A DNA stretch of 64,000 nt from Methylophaga sp. (GTDB lineage: Bacteria; Pseudomonadota; Gammaproteobacteria; Nitrosococcales; Methylophagaceae): assembly GCA_026988435.1 (NCBI GenBank), contig JALSLH010000005.1, positions 22,831-86,830 on the forward strand, written 5' to 3'. The position numbers and the translations under genes are program-made. Positions 13,319 to 62,908 of the stretch are shown here, piece after piece. Under the pieces are notes generated by a model that was not told the DNA's origin, ran no database searches, and saw only the letters and a list, made by a program, of their open reading frames with translations. Numbering within the stretch: position 1 is the stretch's first letter; every line of letters starts with the position of its first letter.

Positions 13319-13333
13319 TACTTTGCTCCGCTT

Positions 13334-14713: not shown

Positions 14714-15523
14714 TTAATTTTTAACTAGAATCTCACCCATACCAATGCCGCCTAAATCTCCCGCGTAACGTTGCACGCGTGAAAATAGTTCTAACTTGGC
14801 AAATTTGGTATCTAAATTGTTGAATGAAGCCAACATCAAGGGCAAAAATGCCAAGGTGTGTGTTCCACAATCATTAAAGTTTGCTGGGATCTGAGCTTCT
14901 TTCAATAATAATAAGGTTCCGCGCTTCATTCCATAACCAAGATGAGCGCCAACGCTACCTAACACGGCAATTGTTCCAGATATCATTCTAGAACCACAAT
15001 AATCGCCAGCATTACCCTCGATAAGAATATAGCCACGACGCATATGATCGCCGGTGCGATCACCGGTATTACCGGTCACGATTACCGTTCCGCCTGTCAT
15101 ACCATTTTTCTGGCCTACGCGTGCTCCACCAACAAAATCACCCGCGTTTCCATTAATTTTAATCTGACCGCCTTTCATTTCGCATGCTGTATAAATGCCT
15201 GTGTTTCCTGTCATCAGGATAAAACCATTGGTCATCATGGCACCTAAATAAGCACCGGCATCACCTTTTATTTCAATGGTGCCATGACTCATTTGATTGC
15301 CGATAAAGTCTAATTTATCACTGCTGTTTTCAAATACAATATGTTTGGCATTATCACCTTTAATATCAAATACACTGTCTGCTCGAACAGTGCGATTACC
15401 TGATGGTAGCTCAATCGCAGCTATCTCAGCAGGTGATTTATCTTCTAGATGATCTGGCGTAAGCACTGAACAATCAACGCGTTGTTGCAAAGATTCTTTT
15501 AGTGTCAGGGTTAATGCGCTCAT
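14714..15523 (-). CDS. fhcC: Formyltransferase/hydrolase complex subunit C (FwdC/FmdC-like)
   Basis: Repeated GNxGDxxG beta-helix motifs (GNAGDFVGG, GNTGDRTGD, GNAGDYCGS). It overlaps fhcD by 4 nt. Confidence 0.85.
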   Translation of the reverse strand: MSALTLTLKESLQQRVDCSVLTPDHLEDKSPAEIAAIELPSGNRTVRADSVFDIKGDNAKHIVFENSSDKLDFIGNQMSHGTIEIKGDAGAYLGAMMTNGFILMTGNTGIYTACEMKGGQIKINGNAGDFVGGARVGQKNGMTGGTVIVTGNTGDRTGDHMRRGYILIEGNAGDYCGSRMISGTIAVLGSVGAHLGYGMKRGTLLLLKEAQIPANFNDCGTHTLAFLPLMLASFNNLDTKFAKLELFSRVQRYAGDLGGIGMGEILVKN

Positions 15524-16416
15524 GCCATTATCTCCTGTAAATGAAAGTGGAAGGGACCAAGTTTACCGCCATAGTTCCCAGCACTAATTCGGCGAATACC
15601 ATTCTCTGCGCCTAAATCACACACCGCTTGTATACCTGCTCGCATTGCCACATCAATATCTTCTTTTGTTAATCCATCAATAACGATTTCCATTACTGAT
15701 TCAACTTCGGGCGAAAGATCACTCTTTGTTTGCCCTTTTAAGGTCGGACAAAAGGCATCATTAGTTGAGGCATTTAAGGCTTTAAATTTGGAGCCGACTT
15801 TAGAGCCTGATCTTACAACACCACCCGGGAAGGGCATAATCACATTCGGGCATTTTTTCATTTCAACAATCGCTGCTTCACAAGCAGCCAAGGCTTGTGC
15901 TTGAGCTTCAGCTAGTACTAAAAAGTTACCACCACCAACCGAGGCTTGCACGCCTGTTTTTTCTTGCGTTAAGAACTCGCCATCCATTACAGGAATACGC
16001 CAATAGCGTTTGCCATCAATCATCTTTGAAATTTGAAAACCGTCTCCAAAAAACCGAAGGTTTTGACCTAATGCTATTTCAGTGTCGCTATCCAACCCCG
16101 AAAACAAAGCTGATGTAGGCGAAGTAAGTACACACTGTCCGGCACGAGTTTCAACTTGTTTCGCTAAGCCTTTTCCACCCATCGCAAAGATCAAAATAGA
16201 TACTCCTGGACGACCATCTGGTGTTTCACTAGGTTCTAATTCTCTTTCAATGCCTGCTTCACAACCACAAGCAATGACCGACGTTGCAAAGCCGGTAAAG
16301 GTTTGTGCTGAAATCATTGCCCATTTAGCATTAAGTGCGGTGATGATTAAGCGTGTGCCTTTCATCGGAAAGGCTTCTGCAAAGGTTTCATCAATTGTTA
16401 CGCCATTGATAATCAT
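15520..16416 (-). CDS. fhcD: Formylmethanofuran--tetrahydromethanopterin N-formyltransferase (Ftr; Fhc subunit D)
   Basis: 298 aa. The Ftr-type N-terminus is MIINGVTIDETFAEAFPMKGTRLIITA. It is translationally coupled to fhcA and fhcC. Confidence 0.85.
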   Translation of the reverse strand: MIINGVTIDETFAEAFPMKGTRLIITALNAKWAMISAQTFTGFATSVIACGCEAGIERELEPSETPDGRPGVSILIFAMGGKGLAKQVETRAGQCVLTSPTSALFSGLDSDTEIALGQNLRFFGDGFQISKMIDGKRYWRIPVMDGEFLTQEKTGVQASVGGGNFLVLAEAQAQALAACEAAIVEMKKCPNVIMPFPGGVVRSGSKVGSKFKALNASTNDAFCPTLKGQTKSDLSPEVESVMEIVIDGLTKEDIDVAMRAGIQAVCDLGAENGIRRISAGNYGGKLGPFHFHLQEIMA

Positions 16417-18080
16417 ATTTTGCCTCCTGCATGTAGCGGCTGAATCGTTAAGCTACCACGTCCATCGTCCACAATTTCATCATCGCTGATTTTAAAGTTA
16501 CCCATTTTTTGAGTGTGATATTTATCGAAATACGGTTTCAATGATTTTTCAATGCTGTTGTCATATTCAGGTTTAACCACATGCGTTGTACCCCATGTGA
16601 CTTCGACAATCTCGCCATCTTTCACCACCATGGTGCCGTCTTTAAATACATAATCTGGTTTGCTGAACATTTTTTCACGATCTTCATTGTCTGTGTACAC
16701 AGTAATATCTGCCGCACCACCAACACTTAAATGACCACGATCAGCAAGACCGACTAATTTAGCCGCACCCGCACGGGTCATAATGGCAATTTCATATAAA
16801 GTATATTCACGATCTAGTGATGCCAAATGACTGGCTTTTTGAGCTTCTGGATGTAAGGTCGATAAGATATCGTTACGGAATGTTTTATCCATTAACAATC
16901 GAATCAAATGTGGATAACTAGTAAACGGTGCGCCATTCGGGTGATCCGTTGTTAAGAATACGCGCCAAGGATCATCCACCATCAAGAAGGTTTCTAAACC
17001 AATCATCCACTGCAATGCGTTAACATAGCTTTGATCTTTATATTTGAATGGCAATACACCACAACCGGCATCACACTCAATATCCATACAGACCCATTTA
17101 TTCGGGCTAGCATGTGGATGCGCCGCATGCTGACGCATATTATCGCCCGAAGCGGTCACGGTTTGACCAAATAATATTTGCCCGACATCGGCGGTGATAT
17201 TTTTGTGTTTATTAATGGTTTCAGCAATCTGTGCAGAACCCGATGAGAACTTAAAGTCACCTTCGGTACCATAACTATGGAACTGAATATGGGTCATATG
17301 CATTGGCAAACCGTTGATACCTTCCATCGTATCAATGGTCATTTCTAAGTTTCCAGCCACACCCAAGTTACAACCATGAACATGCAAGGGATGCGGTACG
17401 CCTAACTCTTTAACCGCAGTCGCTAAACGCAATAAAATATCACGCGGTGTCACACCATAATATTGATTTTTTTCATCTAAATCTAATTTACGCTGGTTAA
17501 ATTTAAAGGCGTTAATACCCCCCGGATTCACTACCTTCACACCAATGGCATGACTATGCGTCATTGTCCAAGCTACATAGTTATTAATGGCTTCTTGGTC
17601 ACCATTTGATGCCATCATGCGTAGTAGAAAATCATCACTACCCAACATAACATAACCACCTTTATCAATGATCGGCGTATCACCCATTTCCATATGTGCT
17701 TGGCGAGCATTGATCGGTAATATCGCCGGCTCAAACCCGGCGGTATATCCCATTTCAGCATAACGATAACCCGCTGTCAGAGTGCTAGGTGCAGCATGAC
17801 CACAACCACTTCGCATTAACTCAGTTCGGGCTACCACATCAGCGGCATGATCTTCTGGCAACATGGTGCGAGCAATATTTACCTTACCACCACCAATATG
17901 GGTGTGCATATCAATTGCACCCGCCATCACCACTTTGCCACGGATATCAATCTCTTTATCTATACGATCATTACCGGGCTTGGCAATGATGCGTCCGTCA
18001 CGGATATAAATGTCTTTAACTTCATTATTGATACTATTGGCTGGATCATAAACTCTACCGCCTGTTAGTTTTGTTAACAT
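16413..18080 (-). CDS. fhcA: Formyltransferase/hydrolase complex subunit A (FwdA-like amidohydrolase)
   Basis: 555 aa. Amidohydrolase metal-binding pattern (AIDMHTHIGG...HVHG...) in FwdA/FhcA context. Confidence 0.85.
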   Translation of the reverse strand: MLTKLTGGRVYDPANSINNEVKDIYIRDGRIIAKPGNDRIDKEIDIRGKVVMAGAIDMHTHIGGGKVNIARTMLPEDHAADVVARTELMRSGCGHAAPSTLTAGYRYAEMGYTAGFEPAILPINARQAHMEMGDTPIIDKGGYVMLGSDDFLLRMMASNGDQEAINNYVAWTMTHSHAIGVKVVNPGGINAFKFNQRKLDLDEKNQYYGVTPRDILLRLATAVKELGVPHPLHVHGCNLGVAGNLEMTIDTMEGINGLPMHMTHIQFHSYGTEGDFKFSSGSAQIAETINKHKNITADVGQILFGQTVTASGDNMRQHAAHPHASPNKWVCMDIECDAGCGVLPFKYKDQSYVNALQWMIGLETFLMVDDPWRVFLTTDHPNGAPFTSYPHLIRLLMDKTFRNDILSTLHPEAQKASHLASLDREYTLYEIAIMTRAGAAKLVGLADRGHLSVGGAADITVYTDNEDREKMFSKPDYVFKDGTMVVKDGEIVEVTWGTTHVVKPEYDNSIEKSLKPYFDKYHTQKMGNFKISDDEIVDDGRGSLTIQPLHAGGKI

Positions 18081-18095
18081 TATTTTGGTAGCTCC

Positions 18096-19370
18096 CTACA
18101 GTTCAGCTTCAACAGCGGTAAGTATGTCGAATGTACTCGGCAACCCACTGTCTCGTAATTTTCGCAATGGCACGGAAACCACGCCATCACATCTAAAGGC
18201 TCGACCAGCATGATCAATTCCCGGTGTACCTACAGGAATAAAGACTTCTGGCTCTTGCTCAAAGCTCATACCTGAGCGCCCTAACACAATCGTTGTTGCA
18301 TTTGATTTTGGTGGCGCACGATCAACATCAAAACTTGAAACCCACACCAAAACATCCACTTCGTCATTTTCTAACATGCGATCGCTATCACAAAGATAAG
18401 GGTCATAATCAGGATAAGCTTGATTAAAATTGGTGCGCATTGGAAAACCAGACTGCCATGCTGAAACTTGATTGGCAGTTATGCCACCGTCTTTGCCACC
18501 CAAAGGCAAACCGCTTGAACGAGTATCATCATTCAACTCTTTAATCATTTCACACACTGTTTGCACCGTCGCTTCAGCATGATCAAAATCTAAATCGCCT
18601 GCCGCCCATGTCACCACAGAATATTTAGCCTGTTTTAGCTGTTCGGCCAATATTGCCAAGTCACTTACTGCAATACCGCCCACTTGCTCGGCTTGTATAC
18701 CTTTACCATTAACTAACGCACGTAAAATCGACACCACTTCGGGTAAATCAGCATCATCACAAGCTAAGACTTGGGCTTTTTTACCTTTTGGCGAAGTTGA
18801 AGCATCGCCTGATGGTGCTTTACCTAGATAAACCACTTGCCGTGATTCAATTTCTTGGTCAAACATGCTTTCATCATTCCACACCATTCGTTCAAAAAAG
18901 CGGGGGAATTCAGCTTCAATATCACTGCCGACTACCAGCAATAAATCAACTCGATTTCTAACTTCGGTTAATGTGGTTAACATCCAGCCCGTATCTTGCA
19001 ACACTAAGGTATTTCTAAAATTGGCTACTGAATCCATATTATCAATGGTTGCTCGGCTTTTATCAGCTAAGGCCATCGCACTACGTGCACCATTTAAATC
19101 CGTGGCCATGCCGCCGATAACAGTCTGATTGCTTTGACGTAGCACGTTAGCAATATGCGTTACAGCTTCAGCCAGTGAAACATCTTTACCGTTGACCCTT
19201 GGAGACATTTCAGTAATCGGCGTTTCAAAACCTTTTTTGGTCACAAAGTCACTATTTTCAATCACTGTAACAGTATTTCCATCAACCTTAATACTGAGAT
19301 CGTCAGAGGCAATACCACAAAATGGACTTGGCACTTCTTGCCAAATACCATCTCCGATTTTTTCTGTCAT
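18096..19370 (-). CDS. fhcB: Formyltransferase/hydrolase complex subunit B (FwdB-like, no obvious Mo/W-ligand Cys)
   Basis: 424 aa with a formate-dehydrogenase/FwdB-like fold. It is the first gene of the fhcB-A-D-C string. Confidence 0.75.
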   Translation of the reverse strand: MTEKIGDGIWQEVPSPFCGIASDDLSIKVDGNTVTVIENSDFVTKKGFETPITEMSPRVNGKDVSLAEAVTHIANVLRQSNQTVIGGMATDLNGARSAMALADKSRATIDNMDSVANFRNTLVLQDTGWMLTTLTEVRNRVDLLLVVGSDIEAEFPRFFERMVWNDESMFDQEIESRQVVYLGKAPSGDASTSPKGKKAQVLACDDADLPEVVSILRALVNGKGIQAEQVGGIAVSDLAILAEQLKQAKYSVVTWAAGDLDFDHAEATVQTVCEMIKELNDDTRSSGLPLGGKDGGITANQVSAWQSGFPMRTNFNQAYPDYDPYLCDSDRMLENDEVDVLVWVSSFDVDRAPPKSNATTIVLGRSGMSFEQEPEVFIPVGTPGIDHAGRAFRCDGVVSVPLRKLRDSGLPSTFDILTAVEAEL

Positions 19371-19380
19371 ATTAATATCC

Positions 19381-19764
19381 TTAATCGTACTTCATATATT
19401 TAAATCGTGGATCAGAGGGTGTCCCTTCAAAAGGACTACCTTCTTCTTCGGCGGGCTGCCATTGCACAACCGCTTCTATCTTTTTTGCTAACTCAAAATC
19501 TTTATCAGTAATGCCTTTTGCACTATGTGTAGTTAACTTCACAATCACAAAAGCATAAGAGGCTGAAATATCAGGATGATGCCATGCCGCTTCAGCTAAA
19601 TGGCCAACCGTATTCACCACCATCAACGTGCCTTTCCAGCCGCTGGTTTTATATTTACGGCGGATCCAGCCATTTTCGAAATACCAATGAGGTAGTTCTG
19701 CCGTTAATTTTTCAGCAACTTCTGATTCTGAATACGTTTTTTCTGTAATGCCAGACATAAACAC
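19381..19764 (-). CDS. 4a-hydroxytetrahydrobiopterin (pterin-4a-carbinolamine) dehydratase
   Basis: LPHWYFENGWIRRKYKTSGWKGTLMVVNTVGHLAEAAWHHPDISASYAFVIVKLTTHSAKGITDKDFELAKKIE is the PCD family core (HHPD). Confidence 0.85.
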   Translation of the reverse strand: MFMSGITEKTYSESEVAEKLTAELPHWYFENGWIRRKYKTSGWKGTLMVVNTVGHLAEAAWHHPDISASYAFVIVKLTTHSAKGITDKDFELAKKIEAVVQWQPAEEEGSPFEGTPSDPRFKYMKYD

Positions 19765-19805
19765 TCAACCTTATTATTTGTATAGTTTGAGCATACTCCA
19801 ATCGT

Positions 19806-20123
19806 TATATACCCGTGACCATTCAATCTGTAGATTTCAGAGTTTAGCACAAGCGTCAGAGCAAGGCGCAATGTGAAGGCAATGACTCGTCCTTGTCAAG
19901 CATTGCAACGCGGCACTGGCGTTTGTGCTAATCTCCCACAGGGCAAGAGAAGAAGCCACACTCTTCGTCGTTATAAAGTCTTAAATTATGCCTACACGGT
20001 TGTAGGTAAATAGAGCAATGCAGGAGCAGTTGCCGAGAATGACTAATTCTGCGACTTTATGCCTAGAATAGTATGGCTTCTTCTCTTGCTGAGTTCTACA
20101 GATTGAATGGTCACGGGTATATA
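19806..20123. mobile_element. MITE copy 1 (318 bp, perfect 28-bp terminal inverted repeats, structured 262-bp interior)
   Basis: The left end tatatacccgtgaccattcaatctgtag (19806-19833) is the exact reverse complement of the right end ctacagattgaatggtcacgggtatata (20096-20123). There is no transposase ORF. Related ends occur at 23089-23239, 48296-48341 and 60385-60559. Confidence 0.85.
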
Positions 20124-20669
20124 CTATCCACGCTTAGCACGCATTAATAGCGATTTAATCTCATTTTGTTTTAACTGCACCTGCAATGCATCCGCTTTTT
20201 TTCGGCCATTTATAGGCCCTATTTGAACGCGATGCCATGTGTCTTTATTATCGATCGTTACCTTATAAATTTTAGATTCAATACCTAAAAGTGCTAATTT
20301 TGCTTTAAAACCATCTGCATCTGATGCATTTCTAAAAGATCCCACCTGAATCAAATAACTCACTTTTTCTTCTGGCAATGATTCTGATGCTTTTTTAGGT
20401 GGCGAACTCGTCGTCATCGGTTGTTTAGGTGTGTTCACCACAACTTCCATTTCTGGTAATACCGTATAAAAATCAAACGTGGGCTCAACTTGTTGTTTTA
20501 TCTTTTGCTCTGTTACGACAACTTCTTCTCTAGGCTGCTCTGCTGGCACATTCTCTTTTAAATGAAAAAGAAACATTACAAAAGCACCGACAGCAAAGCT
20601 CAGTAACATCGGCCCCCATGGCAATGATTTTTCTTTTGCATTATTACGTGAATTTTTTCTTGCCGCCAT
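20124..20669 (-). CDS. SPOR-domain cell-division protein (FtsN/DedD-like)
   Basis: N-terminal TM anchor, a Pro/Glu-rich linker, and a C-terminal SPOR domain (YLIQVGSFRNASDADGFKAKLALLGIESKIYKVTIDNKDTWHRVQIGPI). Confidence 0.8.
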   Translation of the reverse strand: MAARKNSRNNAKEKSLPWGPMLLSFAVGAFVMFLFHLKENVPAEQPREEVVVTEQKIKQQVEPTFDFYTVLPEMEVVVNTPKQPMTTSSPPKKASESLPEEKVSYLIQVGSFRNASDADGFKAKLALLGIESKIYKVTIDNKDTWHRVQIGPINGRKKADALQVQLKQNEIKSLLMRAKRG

Positions 20670-22429
20670 TACATACTCTCCGGCGCCGAAACACCCATCA
20701 CCGTTAAACCATTTTCAATGACTTGTTTTATTGCCGTTATCAAGGTTAAACGTGCTTGGCTTAACTCAATATCATCAACAATAAAGTGATGTGCATTATA
20801 ATACGTATGAAAATCGCGGGCTAAGTCCATCAAATAATGCGCCAAAATATGGGGCGTATAATTTAATGCTGCCGTTTCAATAATTTCGGAATAACGTGAC
20901 AAAGCGGTGAATAATGCTAGCTCATGATCTTCTATTAAACGATTTAGGTTTTGCTCCCCCACGGTTTTATCCCAAACCAAACCACGCTCTTCTAACTGCC
21001 TAAATACACTGCAAACACGTGCATGGGCATATTGCACATAATAAACAGGGTTATCATTGCTTTGTGATTTAGCTAACTCAAGATCAAAATCCATATGCTG
21101 ATCGGCGCCGCGCATCACATAAAAGAAACGCGCCGCATCTTTACCAATTTCTTTGCGTAATTCATTTAAGGTGACAAATTGACCACTGCGAGTCGACATG
21201 GCAATTTTTTCATCACCGCGATACAACACAGCAAATTGCACCAGCAATACTTTTAAACGTGCTTCATCTTGCCCCATCGCCGTCAGTGACGCTCTAACAC
21301 GAGGAATATAACCATGGTGATCGCTTCCCCAGACATCAATTACGGTATCAAAGCCGCGATTATATTTATTTAAATGATAGGCAATATCGGATGCAAAATA
21401 GGTTGTTTGGCCGTTATCACGTACCACAACTCGATCTTTCTCATCACCATAATCGGTAGATTTAAACCACCAAGCCCCTTCTTTTTCATAGAGCACATTC
21501 GATGATTTTAACTGCTCAATCGCCTTGTCAACATCGCCAGATTCCATTAATGAACGTTCAGAAAACCACTCATCATAATCGGTACCAAAGTCCGCTAGAT
21601 CAGATTTAATACCGGCAATAATTGAATTTAAACCTAAATCAAATACTTTACGATAGTGTTCATCACCTAATAAAGCCTTGGCATTAACAATTAAACCATC
21701 AATATGCTGTTCTTTATCGCCGCCTTGTGGTTCATCATCAGGCACATCCGCAAATACATCAGCACTAGAACGTGAAAATGCATCACCCACTTCATCTTTC
21801 AATGACGCGGCAATATCTAAAACATAATCGCCTTTGTAAGCATTACTGGGAAAAGTGAATTGTTCACCACATGCTGCCAAATAACGCAGCCACACACTGG
21901 TCGCCAAAATATCCATCTGCCGACCGGCATCATTGACATAATATTCACGGTGAACTTCAAAACCAACTTCATTGAGCAAGCTACTTACTACTGAACCATA
22001 AGCCGCACCTCGACCATGACCTACATGCAATGGCCCTGTTGGGTTAGCAGATACAAATTCAACTTGAGCACGCTTGCCTTCGCCTAATTTACTTTTGCCA
22101 AATGCATCGCCAGCCGCCAATACATCTTTGACAATTTGTTGAGCAGAATCAGCAGAAAGAGTGAAATTAATAAAGCCTGGGCCTGCGATATCAACTTTGG
22201 TAATAAAATCAACATCAGGCAAAGCATCAACTATTGATGTCGCAATTTGGCGAGGATTCATTTTGGCAGAACGCGCCAACATCATCGCAATATTACAAGC
22301 AAAATCACCGTGTGCTTTATCTTTAGTGCGCTCAATTTGGATCTCTGGCACTGTCATTTCAGGAAGCATGCCTTGTGAAATTAAATCAGATAACACCTGA
22401 CTCAGCACATTAATTAGTTTAGCTTTCAA
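20669..22429 (-). CDS. argS: Arginine--tRNA ligase
   Basis: 586 aa. HIGH-type motif [22 protein letters not shown] (the KMSKS equivalent) and a C-terminal DALR anticodon-binding region. Confidence 0.95.
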
Positions 22430-23088: not shown

Positions 23089-23239
23089 TATACTCCTGAT
23101 CATTCAATGTGTAGATTATCACTCCATCGTCACTCTCGCATGTGGTTAGCGGGAGTCTTGCTTATGTCCAGATTCCGGCTAAAAGACTACCGGAATGACG
23201 CGTTGGAAAAACTGCAACTTGAATGGTCATGGGTATATA
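23089..23239. mobile_element. MITE copy 2 (degenerate TIRs, composite palindromic-module interior)
   Basis: Left end tatactcctgatcattcaatgtgtag and right end ctgcaacttgaatggtcatgggtatata match the copy-1 TIRs. The interior is cgtcactctcgcatgtggttagcgggagtcttgcttatgtccagattccggctaaaagactaccggaatgacg. Confidence 0.75.
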
Positions 23240-23240
23240 C

Positions 23241-25424
23241 TCACATCAAATCAACAGGATCAATATCAATTGACCAACGAACTTTTCTAGCTAATTTTAA
23301 TTTTGAAATAACATCAATCGTGTGATCTAATAATTGATGAATGGGTTTTCGTTTTTCACATGATAATAAAAGTTGTGCTCGATATCGACCTGCCCGCTTT
23401 TCCATTATGGCCGGTACTGGTCCTAAAATCATTACTTGTTGTTGATTGGCTTGGTTTAGCACGTCTAAAACTTCTGTTAAAAACAGCATGGCAAGGGTTT
23501 GTTGTCTATCTTCTGCTCTAATAACACAGAGTGATCCTGCCGGCGGCATCCCCATATCTTTACGTTGTTCTAAGATTTTATGGGCAATATAACTATAATT
23601 TTTCCCTATTAACTCTTTCCAAAATCTATGTTGTGGCTGACTGGTTTGAATAAAGACTTCGCCTGATTTTTCACCACGACCCGCTCGACCTGTTACCTGA
23701 GTAATTAATTGAGCCAAGGTCTCCGTAGCCCTAAAACCAGCACTAAACAAACCTTGATCGGCATCTAATACGCCTACAAGTGTGACATTATGAAAATCAT
23801 GCCCTTTAGCTAACATTTGTGTGCCGACCAAAATCTTAGCCCCACCTTTTTGAATATCCGCCACAATATCAGCAAATGCATTTACCTTTTGAGTAGAGTC
23901 ACGATCAATTCTAATAACAGGTGTTTCAGGAAAATATTGCTGCAAAGTTTGTTCTAATTGCTGTGTACCCACACCATAAGTTTTTAATTCTGTTGTTTTG
24001 CAAGTAGGACAGTGTTGAATTAAACGATGAATTAAACCACAGTGATGACACATTAAAATATTGCGAGATTGATGCACAATCATTTTGGCATCACACGAGG
24101 TACATGTCGCCTGCCAATTACAATCATGACACATTAAAACGGGTGCAAAGCCGCGTCTATTTATAAATAATAAAACCTGATTACCTTCGCCTATTTGCTT
24201 TTTAATCGATTTATATAAAATACTAGAAAGGCCGCTATTAGCTTTAGGTCCTTCGCTATCAATGACTCGTACTTTAGGTAACTGTGCACCGGTCGCTCGC
24301 TCGGTTAATGTGAGTTGTGTATAACGTCCTTGTTCGACGTTATAGAGACTTTCTAATGAAGGGGTCGCACTACCTAAAAGAATAGGTATTTCAGCTCTCT
24401 GAGCTCTTATTAAAGCAACACTTCGGGCATGATAACGTAAGCCGTCTTGTTGCTTGTAAGAACTATCATGTTCTTCATCAATAATAATAAGGCCAATATT
24501 CTTTAGTGGTGTAAAAACAGCTGATCGAGTGCCAATAATTACATCAGTTAAACCATCTCGAGCCAATAGCCATGCTTGTTTTCGATCACTATCTGATATC
24601 GCAGAATTAAGCACCACAATATTTGCCTCTAAATGTTGGCGAAAGCGTTGAACAAACTGGGTCGTTAAACCAATTTCTGGAATTAAAATAATCGTTTGTT
24701 TACCCTTTTCTATAATTTTTTTGGTCAACTGAATATAAACTTCTGTTTTACCACTGCCAGTGATGCCATGTAATAAATAGGGCTTAAACGAATGATGATC
24801 TTTCCAGAGAGTATCAACGATATTTAGCTGTTGTTTAGATAAAAGATGAGATGGTTTTGTATTACAGGCTAAAAGTGTTTGTTTTACTTGTTGATGTTGC
24901 GTTATTACATTTTTATTTTCTAATGAAAGTAATGATGATTTACATGAGCCTAATTCAGCTGTTATTTGTTGTTGTGAAATAGCGCTTGAATAGTTAGTTA
25001 AATAAGACACTATTTGCTGTTGTTTTTCACCTAGTTTTATTTCATCTTGTTTTAACGCTAACTTCCAATATGTTTCAGTTTTTAATACCGCTGGATCTTG
25101 TTGGCGTAATTTCTTTGGTAAGGCTGCCTGAAAACATTCACCTAAAGGATGATGATAATAATCACTCACCCACTGAATTAGATCAAAAGTGTTTTGTGGA
25201 ATTAAGGCTTGATCATCAATAAATTTCTCAATCGTTTTTAATTTAGCATTATTCTTTTCAGTAGTAGATCGTGAAATACCCACTATTATTCCAACCAACT
25301 GACGAGATCTAAAAGAAACTAAAACCCGCATTCCAACTTTAGGAGTGATATTAGAATCTATATTGAGATAATCAAAAATAGTCCGTAAAGGGGTCGGAAT
25401 AGCAATATGAAGAAGTGATGTCAT
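23241..25424 (-). CDS. priA: Primosomal protein N' (replication restart helicase PriA)
   Basis: 727 aa. Walker A GITGSGKT, DEEH box IIIDEEHD and a Cys-rich zinc region (CHDCNWQATCTSCDAKMIVH...CHHCG...CPTCK). Confidence 0.95.
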   Translation of the reverse strand: MTSLLHIAIPTPLRTIFDYLNIDSNITPKVGMRVLVSFRSRQLVGIIVGISRSTTEKNNAKLKTIEKFIDDQALIPQNTFDLIQWVSDYYHHPLGECFQAALPKKLRQQDPAVLKTETYWKLALKQDEIKLGEKQQQIVSYLTNYSSAISQQQITAELGSCKSSLLSLENKNVITQHQQVKQTLLACNTKPSHLLSKQQLNIVDTLWKDHHSFKPYLLHGITGSGKTEVYIQLTKKIIEKGKQTIILIPEIGLTTQFVQRFRQHLEANIVVLNSAISDSDRKQAWLLARDGLTDVIIGTRSAVFTPLKNIGLIIIDEEHDSSYKQQDGLRYHARSVALIRAQRAEIPILLGSATPSLESLYNVEQGRYTQLTLTERATGAQLPKVRVIDSEGPKANSGLSSILYKSIKKQIGEGNQVLLFINRRGFAPVLMCHDCNWQATCTSCDAKMIVHQSRNILMCHHCGLIHRLIQHCPTCKTTELKTYGVGTQQLEQTLQQYFPETPVIRIDRDSTQKVNAFADIVADIQKGGAKILVGTQMLAKGHDFHNVTLVGVLDADQGLFSAGFRATETLAQLITQVTGRAGRGEKSGEVFIQTSQPQHRFWKELIGKNYSYIAHKILEQRKDMGMPPAGSLCVIRAEDRQQTLAMLFLTEVLDVLNQANQQQVMILGPVPAIMEKRAGRYRAQLLLSCEKRKPIHQLLDHTIDVISKLKLARKVRWSIDIDPVDLM

Positions 25425-36044: not shown

Positions 36045-36079
36045 TGTCATTCCGGCTAAAAAAATTACCGGAATGACGA
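36045..36079. repeat. ccggaatgacg hairpin module
   Basis: tgtcattccggctaaaaaaattaccggaatgacg. The same module type occurs at 5263-5287, 23170-23200, 37565-37594, 57501-57530 and 60491-60519. Confidence 0.75.
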
Positions 36080-36108
36080 AGATCTTTTACTACCCGTTTT
36101 CTGCAATA

Positions 36109-56197: not shown

Positions 56198-56780
56198 GGA
56201 AATACTAACTAGTAAAATCCACGAAGTTATTGTTACGACAATAAATGAAGACGGCCAACCCCATTCTGCACCAATGGGAATAAGCGAAGTGAATGGTCAC
56301 ATTCTTATTAAGCCTTTTAAGCCATCAGCTACCTACGATAACTTAAAACAACACCGCCAATGCACGATTAATTATACTGACGATGTACGCGTATTTGCAG
56401 GCTCATTAACAGGGCGGCGAAATTGGGATATGCTACCCTGTCAGCAAATTGAAGGTTTTTATTTAAGTCAGGCTTTAGCGCATACCGAATTAGAAATTGT
56501 TGCATTTGACGATGATGATCCAAGAGCCTTGTTCAAAGGCGCGATCGTCTGCGATGTGAGTCACGCCATGTTTAGAGGTTTTAACCGTGCCCAAAGCGCT
56601 GTGATTGATGCGGCGGTGTTAGTGAGCCGCATAAAAATGTTGCCTGAAGACAAGATAAGACAAGAAATTGCCTATTTATCAATCGCCATAGAAAAAACAG
56701 CAGGCGCCAGAGAGTTAGAAGCATGGGGCTGGTTAATGGCAAAAATTAAAGACAGTGGAATAGAGTTAAAAAATGAGTAA
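56184..56780 (+). CDS. DUF447-family protein (orf20-type, H4MPT-linked)
   Basis: 198 aa. It overlaps both neighbours. An FMN-binding split-barrel-like N-terminus (EVIVTTINEDGQPHSAPMG) fits DUF447. Confidence 0.6.
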   Translation: MAQPKEILTSKIHEVIVTTINEDGQPHSAPMGISEVNGHILIKPFKPSATYDNLKQHRQCTINYTDDVRVFAGSLTGRRNWDMLPCQQIEGFYLSQALAHTELEIVAFDDDDPRALFKGAIVCDVSHAMFRGFNRAQSAVIDAAVLVSRIKMLPEDKIRQEIAYLSIAIEKTAGARELEAWGWLMAKIKDSGIELKNE

Positions 56781-57480
56781 ATGGTTAGCCAGTGTTCAAT
56801 CATTAGAAGAGGCGCAACAATTATTGCCCGTTCTGCCAGATATTCTGGATATGAAAGATCCCTCGAAAGGTGCTTTAGGTGCGCTAGATGTTGAAACCGT
56901 TAGTCAGATCGTTGATTTAATCGCCGGCCGTTGCCAAACCAGTGCCACCATTGGTGATTTGCCAATGAATGCCGAGCTTATCAGCCAAGCAATGATCACT
57001 ATGGCAACATCAGGCGTTGATTACGTGAAGGTGGGTTTATTTTCTGCAACTAATTTAAGGCAATGCATTGCAAAGCTGGAACCCACAATTAAAGCCTTAT
57101 CCACACCCGTTATCGCCGTATTATTTGTAGATAAAGAAGCCGACATCGCATTGTTACCCTTATTAAAAGCGAGTGGTTTTCACGGTGTGATGATAGATAC
57201 GGCAATCAAAAAAGGTCAACATCTGCGCGCGCACTGGAGCGCTTTAAAGTTAAATACATTTGTGCAACAAGCTCAGCAACAAGGCTTGTTATGTGGCTTG
57301 GCAGGTGCATTGCGCTGCAAAGATATCCCCTCTCTTTCACAACATGGCGCAGATTATTTAGGCTTTAGAAGTGCGCTATGCCAGCAACAAAACCGAACAA
57401 GTGAGATTGATCTTAAATTAGCAAAAGAAGTACAAAGGGCAATAAAAATAACGGAGATCGAGCAACAGATTGCGAGCTAA
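56773..57480 (+). CDS. mfnB: (5-formylfuran-3-yl)methyl phosphate synthase-like protein (MfnB/DUF556, orf21-type)
   Basis: WLASVQSLEEAQQLLPVLPDILDMKDPSKGALGALD... parallels the archaeal MfnB N-terminus (VSxxxxEEA...ADIIDxKNPxxGSLGA). Predicted TIM barrel of 235 aa. Confidence 0.7.
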   Translation: MSKWLASVQSLEEAQQLLPVLPDILDMKDPSKGALGALDVETVSQIVDLIAGRCQTSATIGDLPMNAELISQAMITMATSGVDYVKVGLFSATNLRQCIAKLEPTIKALSTPVIAVLFVDKEADIALLPLLKASGFHGVMIDTAIKKGQHLRAHWSALKLNTFVQQAQQQGLLCGLAGALRCKDIPSLSQHGADYLGFRSALCQQQNRTSEIDLKLAKEVQRAIKITEIEQQIAS

Positions 57481-57604
57481 GCTGAACTTCGGGTATAGAT
57501 CGTCATTCCGGTATGCTTTTAGCCGGAATCTGTGTAATAACTACTAGATTTTCACTAAAAATAGGCAAGAATGCCTACATTTTTAAAATTACCCGAAGTT
57601 CAGC
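57481..57604. mobile_element. 124-bp MITE of a second type (15-bp TIRs) carrying a ccggaat module and a terminator-like hairpin
   Basis: gctgaacttcgggta (57481-57495) is the reverse complement of tacccgaagttcagc (57590-57604). The interior holds cgtcattccggtatgcttttagccggaatc and aaaaataggca-aga-tgcctacattttt. It begins at the nucleotide after the mfnB stop codon. Confidence 0.75.
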
Positions 57605-57631
57605 AAATAATTGGACTTGATCAGAGACTCC

Positions 57632-58105
57632 TTAAGCAAGCCGTAACTCCTTTAAAGATGCAAATGCATTTCTGTCACCTATGTCGGGATTAATACTCAA
57701 CTCAAGAATAGTTACTGCCGGAAGTTCCACCTGATAATCTTCAACTTCACTGCTTGCACCTTCAGGGCTGAAGTTCCATTGCTGTCTTACAATTTCTTGG
57801 TACGATTGACCACCGTCAGCAGACCACCGCAAAACATATTCTTGCGTACGCTCAAGCACTAACTCCTCGAAGCTTAACCTGATCCATTGGAGTTTCTGGG
57901 GGGTATCGAAGACAAGCCTAATGATCTGCTCGCCCGGGCCTGAAGCACGCCATTGTGATACTTTACCCGGCAATAGTGCAGACTCGATTGGAAATTCATC
58001 TGCCTCTGAGGTGACTTCAACCACCACAATCATCTCGATATCCAACCATTGATGATCAGGGTTTACATTTTTTTGCGGGACTGGATTAATAATTCTCTTA
58101 CGCAT
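57632..58105 (-). CDS. Cassette ORF D: hypothetical protein, possibly a galactose-binding-domain-like (discoidin-like) fold
   Basis: 157 aa, predicted all-beta. The pattern IIRLVFDTPQKLQWIRLSF...YVLRWSADGGQSYQEIV is reminiscent of small proteins annotated as carbohydrate-binding. Assignment is from memory only. Confidence 0.6.
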   Translation of the reverse strand: MRKRIINPVPQKNVNPDHQWLDIEMIVVVEVTSEADEFPIESALLPGKVSQWRASGPGEQIIRLVFDTPQKLQWIRLSFEELVLERTQEYVLRWSADGGQSYQEIVRQQWNFSPEGASSEVEDYQVELPAVTILELSINPDIGDRNAFASLKELRLA

Positions 58106-58142
58106 CAGGATGCCTTTTAAATTTAAATAAGTTCGAAAATAG

Positions 58143-58235
58143 TGCTAACGCCTCACACCTCCGGCAGCAAAAAGTATAGCGACGAGGAACGAGGAGCGGC
58201 GCTTTTTGCTGTCCGAGTGCATGTGTTTATTAGAG
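58143..58235 (-). repeat. attC-like recombination site 1 (93 nt)
   Basis: Minus strand: CTCTAAT-AAACA-CATGCACTCGGACAGCAAAAAG-(27-nt loop)-CTTTTTGCTGCCGGAGGTGTG-AGGC-GTTAGCA. It has an inverse-core/core pair and a long imperfect stem with bulged bases. The methyltransferase stop codon lies inside the inverse core. Confidence 0.65.
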
Positions 58236-58937
58236 CTTTTTGCATATAAACACACAATACCTTGGATTTTCCCAAATTTCGCCATACATTTTCTGAACTA
58301 CATAAGAAGGCCATGTTTCTTCGAACCCATCGATTGCGAACCCCGCACTAACTAGTGAGCTGATATAGCTTGTCAGTGGCCTATGATGATAAGGCACTCC
58401 GGAAATTACGTTATTCGGATCTTTGGTAATGGTGAAAGATATTTCTTTCTGTGCTGATTCCATGTAGCAGTAATGATCGCCAAAGATTTTCTTATATCCA
58501 TTAAAAAAACAAGGGTGAGGGATAGAGAAAACAAAGTGCCCACCCACCTCTAGATGATTGGCGATAGAGTTGAAAAACCTGGTAGAATCATTAACAACGT
58601 GAGCTACCAAATGTGAAATTGCGACTTCGTATTTTATGTGTTCTGGCAAATCATCCACAAGGCAATTAATTAGCTCTACACCAGAACCATCTAGAACTTC
58701 TTTAGCTACTTTAAACATCCCTGTGGAAGGTTCAACGGCTGTAATACGTAAGCCATTAGCCGCTAATTCCTTTGACAGGTGACCAGTACCCGCCCCGACT
58801 TCAAGAATGGGTTCCCTATTTAGGCCTAACACTTTTTCAATAAAAATGGGCTTAAATACTTTGTTAAAGGTTAAGTCGGTGCCAGACTCAATTTGTTTAC
58901 GCCGTAATTCTGCGGAATCGCACCATCTATGTGGCAT
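58230..58937 (-). CDS. Cassette ORF C: class I SAM-dependent methyltransferase
   Basis: Motif I ILEVGAGTGHLSKELAANGLRITAVEPS, plus post-I and motif II elements (VAISHLVAHVV, HLEVGGHFVFSIP). Confidence 0.8.
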   Translation of the reverse strand: MPHRWCDSAELRRKQIESGTDLTFNKVFKPIFIEKVLGLNREPILEVGAGTGHLSKELAANGLRITAVEPSTGMFKVAKEVLDGSGVELINCLVDDLPEHIKYEVAISHLVAHVVNDSTRFFNSIANHLEVGGHFVFSIPHPCFFNGYKKIFGDHYCYMESAQKEISFTITKDPNNVISGVPYHHRPLTSYISSLVSAGFAIDGFEETWPSYVVQKMYGEIWENPRYCVFICKKL

Positions 58938-59565
58938 TAGACAAAGCTTTTGATTTTCTAATTATGTCCTTTGCCATGGCTATTATTTGAGGACCAGAAT
59001 TATTATCGAATATTGTTATCTCATGATCAGGATGAACGCCCCTTGCAATAGCTAGTTTTTCAGCACCACCACGTTCTCCATTAACGAGAGTAAAGCGGGC
59101 TTCAGGAGGACTATCTTCATCTGTAACAATAAAAGATGCACCTTGAAGGTTAGACTTTACCCCATCAGGAACCTCTTTCGGAGTGATAATTTCGATTCTT
59201 GTTCCTGATTCTATCTTTGATTTAAGGGTAGAAATTAGATTTTCATCACTAGTTAGCCAAGACACGCGATTACTAACGACGGTAGCGCTAGTTCCAGTAG
59301 ATATAAACTTTTCCATGAATTTCAGCGTGTCTTTTGGTTCCTTATCAGTTTGGGTGTCTGGTAGATATTTCATGCCCTTCTTGGCTAGCATTAGAACCAC
59401 AGCAGCCATTTCAGCAATAACAGCTGTAATTATCCAACCAAGGTGCGGCAACTCAGTTTTTTCTGAAAAGAACCAGACGTATGCAAGACCAAAGATTGCA
59501 AGAAATGCTGTAGTACCGGTAAGCCATAAAAAAAGATATAACGTGTGCTTTACTAATTTTTGCAT
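58927..59565 (-). CDS. Cassette ORF B: membrane protein (2 TM) with an uncharacterised ~130-aa cytoplasmic domain
   Basis: TM1 is TLYLFLWLTGTTAFLAIFGLAYVWFF and TM2 is LGWIITAVIAEMAAVVLMLA. The C-terminal domain has no motif I recognise. It overlaps ORF C by 11 nt. Confidence 0.6.
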   Translation of the reverse strand: MQKLVKHTLYLFLWLTGTTAFLAIFGLAYVWFFSEKTELPHLGWIITAVIAEMAAVVLMLAKKGMKYLPDTQTDKEPKDTLKFMEKFISTGTSATVVSNRVSWLTSDENLISTLKSKIESGTRIEIITPKEVPDGVKSNLQGASFIVTDEDSPPEARFTLVNGERGGAEKLAIARGVHPDHEITIFDNNSGPQIIAMAKDIIRKSKALSNAT

Positions 59566-59581
59566 AGATTATTTCTTATAG

Positions 59582-59662
59582 CTCTAACGGTTTAGGTAAG
59601 GGGCTGGAGCGTAGCGGAAGACCCAGCGACTAGAGGGAGCGCACTTGACCTGTTTGTTAGGC
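59582..59662 (-). repeat. attC-like recombination site 2 (81 nt)
   Basis: Minus strand: GCCTAAC-AAAC-AGGTCAAGTGCGCTCCC...GCTCCAGCCCCTTACCT-AAACC-GTTAGAG. The inverse core fits RYYYAAC exactly and contains the stop codon of ORF A. The core fits GTTRRR. Confidence 0.7.
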
Positions 59663-60067
59663 AATTTTATGTGCATATTTAAGTAGTGTTTTAAGAAAAA
59701 CATTACGATTAAGCCAAATAATTTCAACAACAAAAACGGGGGAGCTTAATATAATGCCTGCTAAAATGCTCTCGTTAAACACCATTGATAGAGGAGTTAC
59801 AACAAGAAGGATTAAATAGAATAAACACAGTAGAGTAAAAACTAAAAAATAACTTCGTTCACTAGCTATTTGATAGTGAATTTCCCAAGTATTTCTCCGA
59901 ATATTTTTAATCTTCTTCAGCTCTTTTGCTCGGCTCTTCCGGCTCCATGACTTTAACCATAGAGGGAGTTTTTTTACTAACCAAGATATAATTAATGCTG
60001 TGGCGATAAAGAAAATCCCAGTAAACCACCAAGATGGGTCTTTAAGATTTTCTAGAATTTCATCCAT
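59657..60067 (-). CDS. Cassette ORF A: small membrane protein (3 predicted TM)
   Basis: 136 aa with hydrophobic segments WWFTGIFFIATALIISWLV, YFLVFTLLCLFYLILLVVTPL and LAGIILSSPVFVVEIIWL. It has no recognisable family. Confidence 0.55.
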   Translation of the reverse strand: MDEILENLKDPSWWFTGIFFIATALIISWLVKKLPLWLKSWSRKSRAKELKKIKNIRRNTWEIHYQIASERSYFLVFTLLCLFYLILLVVTPLSMVFNESILAGIILSSPVFVVEIIWLNRNVFLKTLLKYAHKIA

Positions 60068-60078
60068 AATTCAATTAT

Positions 60079-60085
60079 GCCTAAC
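60079..60085 (-). other. Integron-type core site GTTAGGC at the 5' boundary of cassette A
   Basis: The minus strand reads GTTAGGC, 11 nt upstream of the ORF A ATG. It is the exact complement of the inverse core GCCTAAC at the 3' end of the same cassette (59656-59662). Confidence 0.6.
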
Positions 60086-60255
60086 TTGTTATTAAAGGGA
60101 AAGGATTTTCCCTTGTAATTCTTATACATATACGGATAAATTTTCCTAGTAATTAGATAATCAAGACCAAACAAGGCAAGTTGTCAGAATATAGTTCTTA
60201 GATGAAGTATGCCACAAATTTAAGATTTTAGAAGTAGATTTAAATTCATCAGTTT

Positions 60256-60384
60256 TTATTTCTCAATAACCTTTAATTTACGCGCAGGAATGCCGCCCCA
60301 GATTTCATTATCAGCAATAACCGTATTCATGGTGACAAGCGACATGGCGTTGACCATGGCGCCCTTGCCTATTTTTACGCCGGG
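60256..60384 (-). pseudogene. Hexapeptide-repeat (LbH) acetyltransferase, C-terminal 42-codon remnant
   Basis: My minus-strand translation is PGVKIGKGAMVNAMSLVTMNTVIADNEIWGGIPARKLKVIEK*. This is the typical end of xenobiotic or sugar O-acetyltransferases. The reading frame is cut at 60385 by the MITE end. Confidence 0.65.
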
Positions 60385-60559
60385 TATATTCCTCTGACCA
60401 TTGGATCTGCAGATTTTATTCACCCGTCACTCCCGCATGTTTACCCAGTCAAGCTGAGTACAAGCTTAGCGGGAGTCTTGCTTATGTCCAGATTCCGGCT
60501 AAAAGCTACCGGAATGACGAAGAAGTAAAAGCTACAGATTGATTTCACTTAGGTATATA
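60385..60559. mobile_element. MITE copy 4 (degenerate TIRs, composite palindromic-module interior)
   Basis: Left end tatattcctctgaccattggatctgcag and right end ctacagattgatttcacttaggtatata. The interior, cgtcactcccgc...gcgggagtcttgcttatgtccagattccggctaaaagctaccggaatgacg, is nearly identical to that of copy 2. Confidence 0.7.
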
Positions 60560-60628: not shown

Positions 60629-62908
60629 TTATTCTGGCAGGCTATTTCGCAAAATACGGCTGGCAGTGACCATGGCGGTTAATGCGGGTTTAACTTCTTG
60701 CCAGCCCCGTGTTTTCAAGCCGCAATCAGGGTTGACCCATAATCGTTCAGCGGGAATGCGTTGCGATGCTTTTTTCATTAGCAATACAATTTGTTCTACC
60801 GTGGGAATATTCGGTGAGTGAATATCATATACGCCCGGTCCAATTTCATTAGGATAGTCGAACTCTTTAAACACATCTAATAACTCCATATCTGAGCGTG
60901 AGGTTTCAATGGTGATCACGTCTGCATCCATGTTGGCAATGGCTTTTATAATGTCATTGAATTCGGAATAGCACATATGAGTGTGGATCTGCGTTTGATC
61001 ACTGACACCATTCGCACTGATTTTATAGCTAGTGACAGCCCAGTCTAAATAGCCTTGCCATTGTGATTTTCGTAACGGTAAACCTTCGCGTAAGGCGGCT
61101 TCATCAATTTGAATAATGTTGATACCGGCTCGTTCTAAGTCTTGTACTTCATCTCGTATCGCCAAGGCAATTTGCTGACAGGTTTGTGAACGTGGCTGAT
61201 CATCACGCACAAACGACCAGTTTAGAATGGTGACGGGGCCGGTGAGCATGCCTTTTACCGGTTTATCACTTAATGATTGTGCATAAGTTGCCCACTCTAC
61301 GGTCATCGGTTTAGGGCGTGAAATATCACCATAAATAATCGGCGGTTTAACACAGCGTGAACCATATGATTGTACCCAGCCAAACTGGCTAAAGGCGTAA
61401 CCATCAAGTTGTTGGCCAAAATATTCGACCATGTCATTTCGCTCGGCTTCACCATGCACTAATACATCTAAGCCGATAGCGTGTTGCTGTTCGATGGTGA
61501 ACTTGATTTCATCTTTAAGAAATTGTTGGTAGTCTTTTTCTGCAAGCTTGCCTAAACGATAGCGCTTTCGGGCTTGGCGTATGTCTGTTGTTTGGGGAAA
61601 CGATCCTATTGTGGTGGTGGGAAATAACGGTAAATTAAAGTGCTGTTGTTGTATTTTGGCTCTTTGCTGATAACTGCTTTGTCGATTAGCTAGTGCTGGT
61701 TCAATGGCTTTGACGCGTGCTTTTACTTTTGAGTTATGTACTCGGGACGAGTTTTGACGTGATTGAACTGCAAAGGCGTTTAATACACGCTCTTCGGCCA
61801 CCGTTTCACGGCCTTCATTGAGGGCAGTGGCTATTATCGAAAGCTCATCCAATTTTTGTACTGCAAATGCGAGCCATGATTGGACTTCGTCATCAAGGTC
61901 GTTTTCACTATCAAGATCGACTGGCACATGAAGTAATGAGCATGATGGCGCAATCCACAAGCGATCTTTTAATCGAGCATAAATAGGCTCTAGCCAATCT
62001 AAAGTAGCATTAAGATCGGTTTTCCAGATATTACGGCCATTAATAATGCCTAAAGAAAGTATCTTGTGAGGTGCTAACCAATCAATAACACTCGTAATTT
62101 CTGCAAAGGCATTGATTGCGTCGAGGTGTAGGCCTGCTACGGGTAACTCACAAGCAAGATGGAGGTTTTCTTTTAACTCGCCAAAGTAGCTGGTTAATAA
62201 TAATTTAACGGGGGCTTTATTGAGTGAAAAATAGGCTTGTTTGAGTGCATGTTGCCATTTTTGATCAAGCTCAGTCACCAAAATTGGCTCATCTATTTGC
62301 ACCCATTCGATGCCTTCTTTATCTAATGCGAGCAATAGTTGTTCGTAACTTGCGACCAAATCATCAAGCAAGTCGAGCTTATTACTGTCGTCTTTCGATT
62401 TTCCTAACCATAAATAGCTAACAGGCCCTAAGATAACGGGTTTAACAGTAATGCCTTGTTGCTTGGCTTCGCTAATATGTGACAGCAAGCGTGAGGCATG
62501 CAGTGAAAATGTGGTATCAGCATCAAATTCAGGCACAATATAGTGATAGTTAGTATCAAACCATTTGGTCATTTCACCTGCTGAAATCTGTTGGCAGGCG
62601 CTTGCAGATTGAGATTGACCGCGCGCCACTTGAAAGTATTTGTCCAAATCATTGGCGTGTTCGTCGACGCGAGACGGTAAATTACCAAATAAAACAGATG
62701 TATCTAAGACATGGTCATAAAAAGAGAAGTCGCCTACAGGTAATAAATCTAATTTGTTTTGTGCTTGCCAGTGCGTTTGACGTAAAGCTTGCCCCACTTG
62801 CTGTAATTGCTGTTGAGATGATTGACCGCGCCAAAAAGATTCTAGTGCAAATTTCAGTTCACGGTTTTTACCTATCCGAGGGAAGCCGAGGTTATGAGTC
62901 GTTACCAT
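60629..62908 (-). CDS. metE: Cobalamin-independent methionine synthase
   Basis: 759 aa. The N-terminus is [22 protein letters not shown]. The C-terminal Zn site is [10 protein letters not shown]...DCGLKTR. Confidence 0.97.

Follow-up and report, generated by a model that had tools for sequence, protein, structure and literature searches.

Clusters of attC sites without an integron integrase are reportedly designated CALIN (clusters of attC sites lacking integrase), and single sites of this kind SALIN (single attC sites lacking integrase), in the 2016 terminology of Cury et al. and in IntegronFinder 2. Under the formal rule, a CALIN has two or more attC sites that are detected by a model within less than 4 kb of each other, and no integron integrase nearby. 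Such clusters are common, and their origin is debated, either as integron relics or as fresh insertions in trans. In the present study, we analyzed a stretch of 64,000 nt from Methylophaga sp. (GenBank assembly GCA_026988435.1, contig JALSLH010000005.1, positions 22,831 to 86,830), hereafter called the window, in which the interval between mfnB (56773-57480, plus strand) and metE (60629-62908, minus strand) had been flagged by an initial annotation as an integron-type cassette array without an integrase. We consider it very likely that window 57.6-60.3 kb is indeed such an array, comprising three cassettes with four genes on the minus strand and having no integron integrase nearby, based on a match to an attC model, G/TT junctions, the variability of the interval among relatives, and the lack of an intI gene within reach.

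The integrase IntI inserts cassettes at GWT sites of the genome (Loot et al., bioRxiv 10.1101/2022.09.11.507474), and cassettes inserted in this manner are expressed near a resident promoter and may be excised again. The same study reports that most CALINs are small and do not lie beside intI pseudogenes, and such clusters are described as integron relics or as trans insertions at sites named attG (bioRxiv 10.1101/2022.09.11.507474). The present locus resembles CALIN and SALIN elements in its attC-bounded cassettes of one orientation, its small size, and the lack of a nearby intI; its cargo is likewise mostly of uncharacterized function, with toxin-antitoxin pairs in relatives. However, the definition of a CALIN contains no platform, whereas the array examined here begins at a conserved attI-like platform that is common to several species. 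In common with attG insertions, its cassettes are placed at G/TT where there is no classical integron, and they would have a resident promoter upstream and would be excisable, but attG sites are described as diverse and opportunistic, while this locus reuses one bond with five different cassettes across species.

Sedentary chromosomal integrons, such as the Vibrio superintegron and the Xanthomonas integron next to ilvD, also combine a site that is fixed by a housekeeping gene across species with variable cassettes, lineage-typical attC sequences, and toxin-antitoxin cassettes. In these integrons, intI, sometimes as a pseudogene, lies beside attI, whereas the neighbor of the platform at the present locus is metE or an acyltransferase gene, and no intI remnant is detectable. 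The locus belongs to a known kind of element, namely, a CALIN and formally perhaps a SALIN because only one of its attC sites passes the model, and the reading of its platform as an orphan attI, which is discussed below, would be a modest novelty if confirmed.

Cassette junctions and attC sites in the window

The features of the array are as follows, with positions being those of the window.

57607..58148, minus strand: cassette D, containing orf157, with no recognizable attC after it
57632-58105, minus strand: orf157, 'carbohydrate-binding' family
58143..58235, minus strand: site 2, putative degenerate attC of cassette B/C, from its junction and homologous cassettes
58149..59587, minus strand: cassette B/C, 1439 bp, two genes (orf212 and the methyltransferase MT235)
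58230-58937, minus strand: MT235, S-adenosylmethionine-dependent methyltransferase (Pfam Methyltransf_11/25/12/23)
58927-59565, minus strand: orf212, 212 aa, 11-nt overlap with MT235
59582..59662, minus strand: attC site 1, the sole match of model R1 in the window
59588..60084, minus strand: cassette A, 497 bp, orf136 with its own attC; start TTAGGC, end GCCTAAC
59657-60067, minus strand: orf136, predicted membrane protein, no family match
60079..60085, minus strand: junction of the platform and cassette A, R' core GTTAGGC, with the crossover between G (60085) and TT (60084-60083)
60086..60255, minus strand: conserved attI-like platform heading the array, approximately 170 bp, AT-rich

At 58149-60084, 1.94 kb comprising two units has been inserted precisely at the G/TT of a site that is empty in the related locus L009. 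Read on the minus strand, with a slash at the junction, the empty site of L009 is ...TAATAACAA/GTTAGCAC-orf157 (in a longer reading, ...CGTTAATAACAA/GTTAGCACTATTTTCGAAC...orf157). The filled site of the window is ...TAATAACAA/GTTAGGC[1.94 kb]GGC/GTTAGCAC-orf157, and with all of its junctions reads ...CTTTAATAACAA/GTTAGGC[orf136]GCCTAAC..CC/GTTAGAG[orf212-MT235]CTCTAAT..GGC/GTTAGCACTATTTTCGAAC...orf157. The 3' end of site 2 is the exact junction with the sequence /GTTAGCAC of L009 and of L003 (Methylophaga sp. NORP33), the latter having a third sequence joined to this same /GTTAGCAC; orf157 is preceded by G/TTAGCAC in all three loci, with three different upstream sequences. At the bond between the platform and cassette A, other cassettes are joined in L034 and L013. 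The alleles differ by whole cassettes and are cut exactly at the core G/TT, and since the window carries an exact G/TT insertion in comparison with the empty site of L009, the observation matches the prediction of integron recombination.

Regarding the attC sites, cassette attC sites were extracted from 15 collected class-1 integron regions, and 14 of them, all from class-1 integrons of plasmids, were aligned to yield a surrogate covariance model, R1, the structure of which has a 7-bp R box, a 3+6-bp L box, and one extrahelical base. On held-out attC sites used as a control, R1 scored 43.2 bits (dfrA12) and 38.8 bits (orfF). Over the whole window (both strands, 128 kb, E up to 10), it gave a single match, at 59582-59662 on the minus strand, over its full length (23.6 bits, with a rough E of 0.0013; E=1.9e-4 with the filters off over 9 kb). 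This match coincides exactly with site 1 of the initial annotation, and site 1 is an attC. Read from 59662 to 59582, it runs GCCTAAC-AAACA-GGT[C]AAG...CTTACC-TAAACC-GTTAGAG, and its geometry is canonical (R'' of 7 nt, a 5-nt spacer, L'' with one extrahelical base, L', a 6-nt spacer, and R') when compared with the attC consensus R''(RYYYAAC)-5 nt-L'' with an extrahelical base ... L'-5/6 nt-R'(GTTRRRY). Its center carries CCGCTACGCTCC, similar to the CGCTTCGCT core of the loop consensus in the class-1 model.

Site 2, read from 58235 to 58143, is CTCTAAT-AAACA-CATGCAC...CAGCAAAAAG...CTTTTTGCTG...GTGTG-AGGC-GTTAGCA and follows this consensus approximately: R'' (CTCTAAT) ends in T, L'' (CA[TG]CAC) has two bulged bases, L' (GTGTG) is one base short, and a 4-nt spacer leads to R' (GTTAGCA). 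Considering its junctions and the homologous cassettes described below, from which its support comes, site 2 is probably a decayed but genuine attC.

The palindromes, cores, stop codons, leaders, and complementarity of cassette ends had been described correctly. The TAA codons of orf136 (59657-59659) and MT235 (58230-58232) fall within the inverse cores, and the start codons lie 11, 16, and 37 nt past GTTAGGC, GTTAGAG, and GTTAGCA, respectively. The complementarity between the start and the end of each cassette, which had been put forward as circular-permutation logic, holds for cassettes A (TTAGGC with GCCTAA) and B/C (TTAGAG with CTCTAA) and is imperfect for cassette D (TTAGCA with TGCTTAAG), as the annotation itself had stated; among the nine cassettes read in the window, L034, L013, and L007, six showed a perfect 6/6 match between the start and the inverse core. 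A search for CTAAYAAACA found two occurrences in the 64 kb, namely, sites 1 and 2 on the same strand (0.51 expected; at least two in 6/100 shuffles).

Several points weigh against the interpretation of the interval as a cassette array. R1 is a home-made model with rough E-values, and the sequences are metagenome assemblies, that of the window belonging to a 90-kb contig (ENA ERZ27262649 k141_114509). Site 2, for which attC architecture had also been claimed, failed the model check and was below significance with both attC models (5.6 bits with R1 and 5.8 bits with R2, E 3.7-8.6); R2, in which five Methylophagaceae attC sites were added to the training set of R1, rescued neither this site nor the degenerate sites of L013 and L007 (12-13 bits, E about 1). 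With one attC passing the surrogate models and one below their threshold, the locus may fall short of the formal CALIN rule and could be called a SALIN, and a standard two-attC rule would probably miss this array. Folding of the bottom strands, which had been proposed as a check, did not discriminate: the fold of site 1 was no better than that of shuffled sequences (z=+0.2; bottom, plus, strand dG -8.8 kcal/mol) because its central stem is poor, and that of site 2 had z-scores of -1.3 to -1.9 (bottom, plus, strand dG -16.7, z=-1.9). The last cassette, with orf157, is without an attC.

Variation of the mfnB-metE interval and homologous cassettes elsewhere

For a comparison of the interval, the proteins encoded in the window were searched for by tblastn in 16 related loci. 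In distant relatives, mfnB lies next to metE, in keeping with the proposed setting of the array within otherwise conserved housekeeping synteny, and closer relatives carry differing minus-strand arrays (L007, L013, L009, L003, and L034). The states of the interval include the following.

L006, L010, L011, and L015: mfnB and metE approximately 100 bp apart (empty interval)
L012: mfnB and metE 183 bp apart
L007: small open reading frames (ORFs) on the minus strand over 2 kb, unrelated to those of the window, with toxin-antitoxin pairs of the Phd/ParE type
L013: likewise small minus-strand ORFs, over 4 kb and without relation to those of the window, with toxin-antitoxin pairs of the PIN type

Since the interval is empty or different among relatives, it is a variable hotspot and not core synteny; neither the ORFs nor the palindromes are conserved, which argues against core genes.

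A metagenome scan for the conserved spacer/platform motif retrieved one locus, the contig L034, the flanks of which are 96-97% identical to those of the window (3.5 kb of mfnB-side sequence and metE), with no cassette in common. L034 carries two other cassettes (115 aa and 152 aa) with an attC between them at 4415-4505 (24.2 bits, E=1e-4), which reads TGCTAAC...GC/GTTAGAC, and the first of these cassettes starts with G/TTAGCA, complementary to its own TGCTAAC. The order orf136-orf212-MT235 of the window is reproduced in an independent Logan assembly (L042). The mfnB of the window shows 88% identity to that of Methylophaga sp. NORP33, in which R1 detected an attC at 18330-18416 (44.9 bits); R1 also detected attC sites in L008 (37.9 and 31.7 bits) and gave a weak match in L013 (12.6 bits). 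The left halves of the L008 sites (TAACAAATAGCTCCAGCGGACA) reappear as truncated sites in L013 and L003, and the attC sites of these three loci have ...TAGCTCCAGCGGACA in common, a recurrence in the sequences that suggests a lineage-typical attC family.

Two further observations concern these genomes. In L003, approximately 6 kb (10709-16847) lies between mfnB and orf157, with plus-strand ORFs of 363, 568, 273, and 389 aa and short overlapping minus-strand ORFs; this is a second, non-integron type of insertion in the same hotspot. In L008, a more distant Methylophagaceae metagenome-assembled genome (MAG), an attC-bearing array (17596-20675) that includes an overlapping pair of small ORFs (126 and 68 aa) lies approximately 7 kb from mfnB, past housekeeping genes.

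Homologues of the cassette genes were found in cassette contexts elsewhere. More than 400 homologues of orf212 were found in Vibrio, Shewanella, Kangiella, Pectobacterium, Aeromonas, and others, those listed (120) being 56-80% identical, and the source names of its homologues include Phaeobacter, Ruminiclostridium, and a Methanosarcinales MAG. It is followed by a 235-aa methyltransferase with an 11-nt overlap in each of the six contexts that were read, from Vibrio, Shewanella, Kangiella, and a TARA contig, and the two genes form a fixed module across many gammaproteobacteria. In Vibrio parahaemolyticus (L035-L038), this module of 212 and 235 aa, with 75-80% amino acid identity, is located within a dense series of attC sites detected by R1, one of which ends just upstream while another begins on the methyltransferase stop codon, and its boundaries are G/TTAGAGCT...AAGCTCTAAC (inverse core CTCTAAC), as in the window. 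In the Vibrio and Kangiella cassettes, the start is G/TTAGAGCTC and the end AAGCTCTAAC, and in the window, G/TTAGAGCTA and AAGCTCTAAT; the R'' of site 2, CTCTAAT, is homologous to their CTCTAAC with a C-to-T change. Because cassette B/C has the same boundaries as the Vibrio and Kangiella cassettes, site 2 may be regarded as the degenerate attC of a genuine cassette. The V. parahaemolyticus superintegron cassette and that of the window are alike in their two genes, the 11-nt overlap, the start TTAGAGCT, and a CTCTAAC-type inverse core at the stop codon, but the former has a 128-nt Vibrio-type attC and a 43-nt leader to orf212, whereas the latter has an unrelated degenerate 93-nt palindrome and a 16-nt leader.

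The orf157 family comprises 6125 clusters, all of approximately 157 aa and annotated in some sources as a 'carbohydrate-binding protein'; identity is 73-83% among the best 120 listed (P0128-P0247), which include Methylophaga, Nitrotoga, Desulfobacterales, and Psychromonas, and thus other bacterial classes too. In L049, an attC overlaps the stop codon of the homologue (20.1 bits), attC sites lie nearby in L046 and L048, and homologues are often located on short contigs or adjoin attC sites. orf157 is an unusually conserved and apparently mobile gene. As for orf136 (homologues P0004 and P0005), a homologue directly follows an attC in L044 and L045 (31.5 bits), and another is part of an array in L043. 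All three units of the window are cassettes, and two widespread, highly conserved gene units, the 157-aa 'carbohydrate-binding' protein and the pair of the 212-aa protein and methyltransferase, are hereby placed among mobile integron cargo.

Apart from these comparisons, L043 encodes, at 2381-3283, a 300-aa tyrosine recombinase with Phage_int_SAM_4, Phage_int_SAM_1, and Phage_integrase domains on the same strand as, and directly upstream of, the array that contains the orf136 homologue and a 32.9-bit attC. From its sequence, L043 may be an integron with an integrase in the same orientation.

The platform and the route of cassette entry

The platform that heads the array is 95% identical in L034 and approximately 79% identical in L009 and L013; L007 has a partial (truncated) copy, and genomes in which the interval is empty have none. 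It has the motif TTAAATTTGTGGCATACTTC...TAATAACAAGTTA and ends in ...TTTAATAACAA right before the crossover G, reading ...TAATAACAAG/TTA at the crossover; in four genomes, the end is CCC(T/G)TTAATAACAAG/TTA, each time with a different first cassette. Five different first cassettes were found on the platform, four of which are joined at one bond (window, L034, L009, and L013), with the fifth on the truncated copy of L007. A constant left partner and varying first cassettes at G/TT are what an attI would present. Of the claim that the window holds neither intI nor attI, the former part stands, with no intI-like ORF found, and the latter is doubtful. The CCCTTTAATAACAAG/TTA of the platform resembles the simple site of attI1, which in L028 and L020 is CCCTAAAACAAAG/TTA. 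Promoter-like hexamers are present, including TTGATA-17-TATAGT in L007, and the platform is abutted by metE (L007 and L013) or by the acyltransferase gene (window, L009, and L034). On these sequence features, the platform may function as an attI with a promoter. In L013, it is split by an insertion of approximately 280 bp (14256-14530) in which GCTAAC and CCGCTTCGCTC motifs occur. Immediately upstream of the crossover, the platforms of the window (60095-60114), L034, L009, and L013 contain a hairpin, with a terminator-like score on the plus strand, and its pairing is kept through two compensatory changes between species (GGGAAA with TTTCCC in the window, GAGAAT with ATTCTC in L009). It could be an accessory structure of attI, an attenuator, or an insulator.

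Using IntI1 as a query that was 100% identical to plasmid intI1, tblastn detected no intI in the window and L001 (3.5 kb beyond the window; best E=3.2) and none when the related loci were included up to 10 kb on each side of mfnB (best E=2.6). Neither a tyrosine recombinase nor an intI remnant was detectable beside the platform by this search or among the neighboring genes. The locus does not have the intI adjoining attI and array of a complete integron, and it is, within the window and the adjoining 3.5 kb, without the nearby integrase that would set it apart from a CALIN.

In the mechanism that we propose, each cassette would once have existed as a circle with an attC hairpin. A tyrosine recombinase of the IntI type, the gene of which would lie at another place in the genome or have been lost in the meantime, would cut the folded attC and its target between G and TT and join the cassette to the fixed platform ending ...TAATAACAAG/TT, which would act like attI. 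Since cassettes would join at this fixed platform, the newest ones would lie beside it (orf136 first) and the older ones would be pushed towards mfnB (orf157 last). Leaders are short (11-37 nt), and transcription would presumably start from the promoter-like sequences of the platform. The data agree with cassettes being gained and lost through a recombinase at a single fixed bond, which favors an attI-like platform served in trans. We infer the action of the integrase in trans and its timing; exchange may be ongoing, or the array may by now be a relic. As a tentative extension, in which we place limited confidence, the platform would be an orphan attI with its own promoter, kept without an adjacent integrase across several Methylophaga species and still in use. 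If true, this would be a chromosomal integron with its recombinase purely in trans, provided by another locus or a visiting mobile integron, and the split architecture would be stable over speciation and not a product of decay.

An alternative explanation is that the cassettes are true integron cassettes, but that the platform is not an attI and entry occurred at a fortuitous GTT, an attG, just downstream of a resident promoter, the SALIN or CALIN having arisen by genome insertion and neither descending from an integron platform nor being its functional equivalent. This route has been described (bioRxiv 10.1101/2022.09.11.507474), and the platform is adjoined by metE or the acyltransferase gene with no intI or remnant thereof. 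We regard this explanation as possible but unlikely because the same phosphodiester bond is used with four first cassettes (and its truncated version with a fifth in L007), the platform accompanies the array and is missing where the interval is empty, and its end resembles the attI1 simple site; where one bond is used repeatedly in different species, a dedicated site seems a better account than a GTT present by chance. The array may otherwise be the inert relic of a complete integron that lost intI, with genome differences reflecting the differential deletion of a large ancestral array and no capture. Degenerate or truncated sites are many (site 2, the left halves in L013, the 32-nt mini-site of L003, and last cassettes without attC), and no integrase is within reach of the locus. 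However, the window and L034 have 96%-identical flanks and no common cassette, with an intact attC in each strain, and differential loss alone needs a very large ancestral array. Moreover, whole-cassette differences are cut exactly at G/TT, which requires a recombinase and not random deletion; we therefore consider the inert-relic explanation rather improbable.

An explanation by ordinary lineage-specific genes with hairpin terminators, or by an islet moved by flanking miniature inverted-repeat transposable elements (MITEs) or another transposon, is highly improbable. It could account for palindromes after stop codons, the 10-bp perfect stem of site 2, and MITE-like sequences on both sides. 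Nevertheless, the interval is empty or different in relatives, and an attC model built from unrelated sites detects site 1. Terminators between core genes were rejected given this variability, the lack of a T-run after the hairpins, and a negative terminator scan at both sites; a MITE-mobilized islet was rejected because no terminal inverted repeats bound the insert, L034 does not have the left MITE, and the right-hand one is just a dispersed 33-nt hairpin.

Returning to the reading as a cassette array, the locus represents a natural series that bears on the origin of CALINs: marine methylotrophs that are closely related have, at one and the same bond, alleles that are empty or hold one, two, or three cassettes, together with a conserved platform without an integrase.

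Flanking elements and predicted gene functions

The array is flanked by the following features.

57481..57606, plus strand: MITE-like element, 126 bp, with 15-bp perfect terminal inverted repeats (inverted repeat I7)
60256..60423, minus strand: hexapeptide-repeat acyltransferase remnant, C-terminal part only, outside the array
60489..60520, no strand assigned: 33-nt hairpin resembling repetitive extragenic palindromic (REP) sequences (CAGATTCCGGCTAAAAGCTACCGGAATGACGA), common to the interior of the left MITE-like element

The acyltransferase remnant had been regarded as a truncated acetyltransferase that continues the array. The gene is full length in L034 (5056-5742, 228 aa), and the remnant corresponds to a 629-bp deletion, the window being without L034 5189-5817. 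As a cassette it was rejected, with no attC after it and a position upstream of the conserved platform. The array had also been described as bracketed by MITEs, which the comparison does not bear out. The left MITE-like element has a fold z-score of -9.2 and is absent at this position in L034, and the right-hand 'MITE' shares with it just the 33-nt REP-like hairpin. This hairpin, TCGTCATTCCGGTA(N)CTTTTAGCCGGAAT, is dispersed in the window (5253-5286, 23169-23242, 36049-36082, 57500-57532, and 60489-60520) and also occurs in L003, L004, and L013, with a weaker copy in L008. The MITE-like element and REP-like hairpin are incidental to the array.

The GC content of cassette A is 0.33, compared with 0.42 for the window. 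Rfam searches of 57.3-60.8 kb, at gathering and E<=10 thresholds, gave nothing relevant and no attC family. PADLOC, NCBIfam, and Pfam searches with orf136, orf157, and orf212 gave no function, and an exact look-up of orf157 returned no identical record. For MT235, the protein libraries gave a methyltransferase match at the domain level only (PADLOC mad2, 1e-15); a role in defense or modification is possible for the pair of orf212 and the methyltransferase. In L007, the first cassette (11665-12402) encodes a 245-aa protein, the C terminus of which matches the PADLOC TIR effector model (E=9e-7), and this cassette may represent defense cargo.

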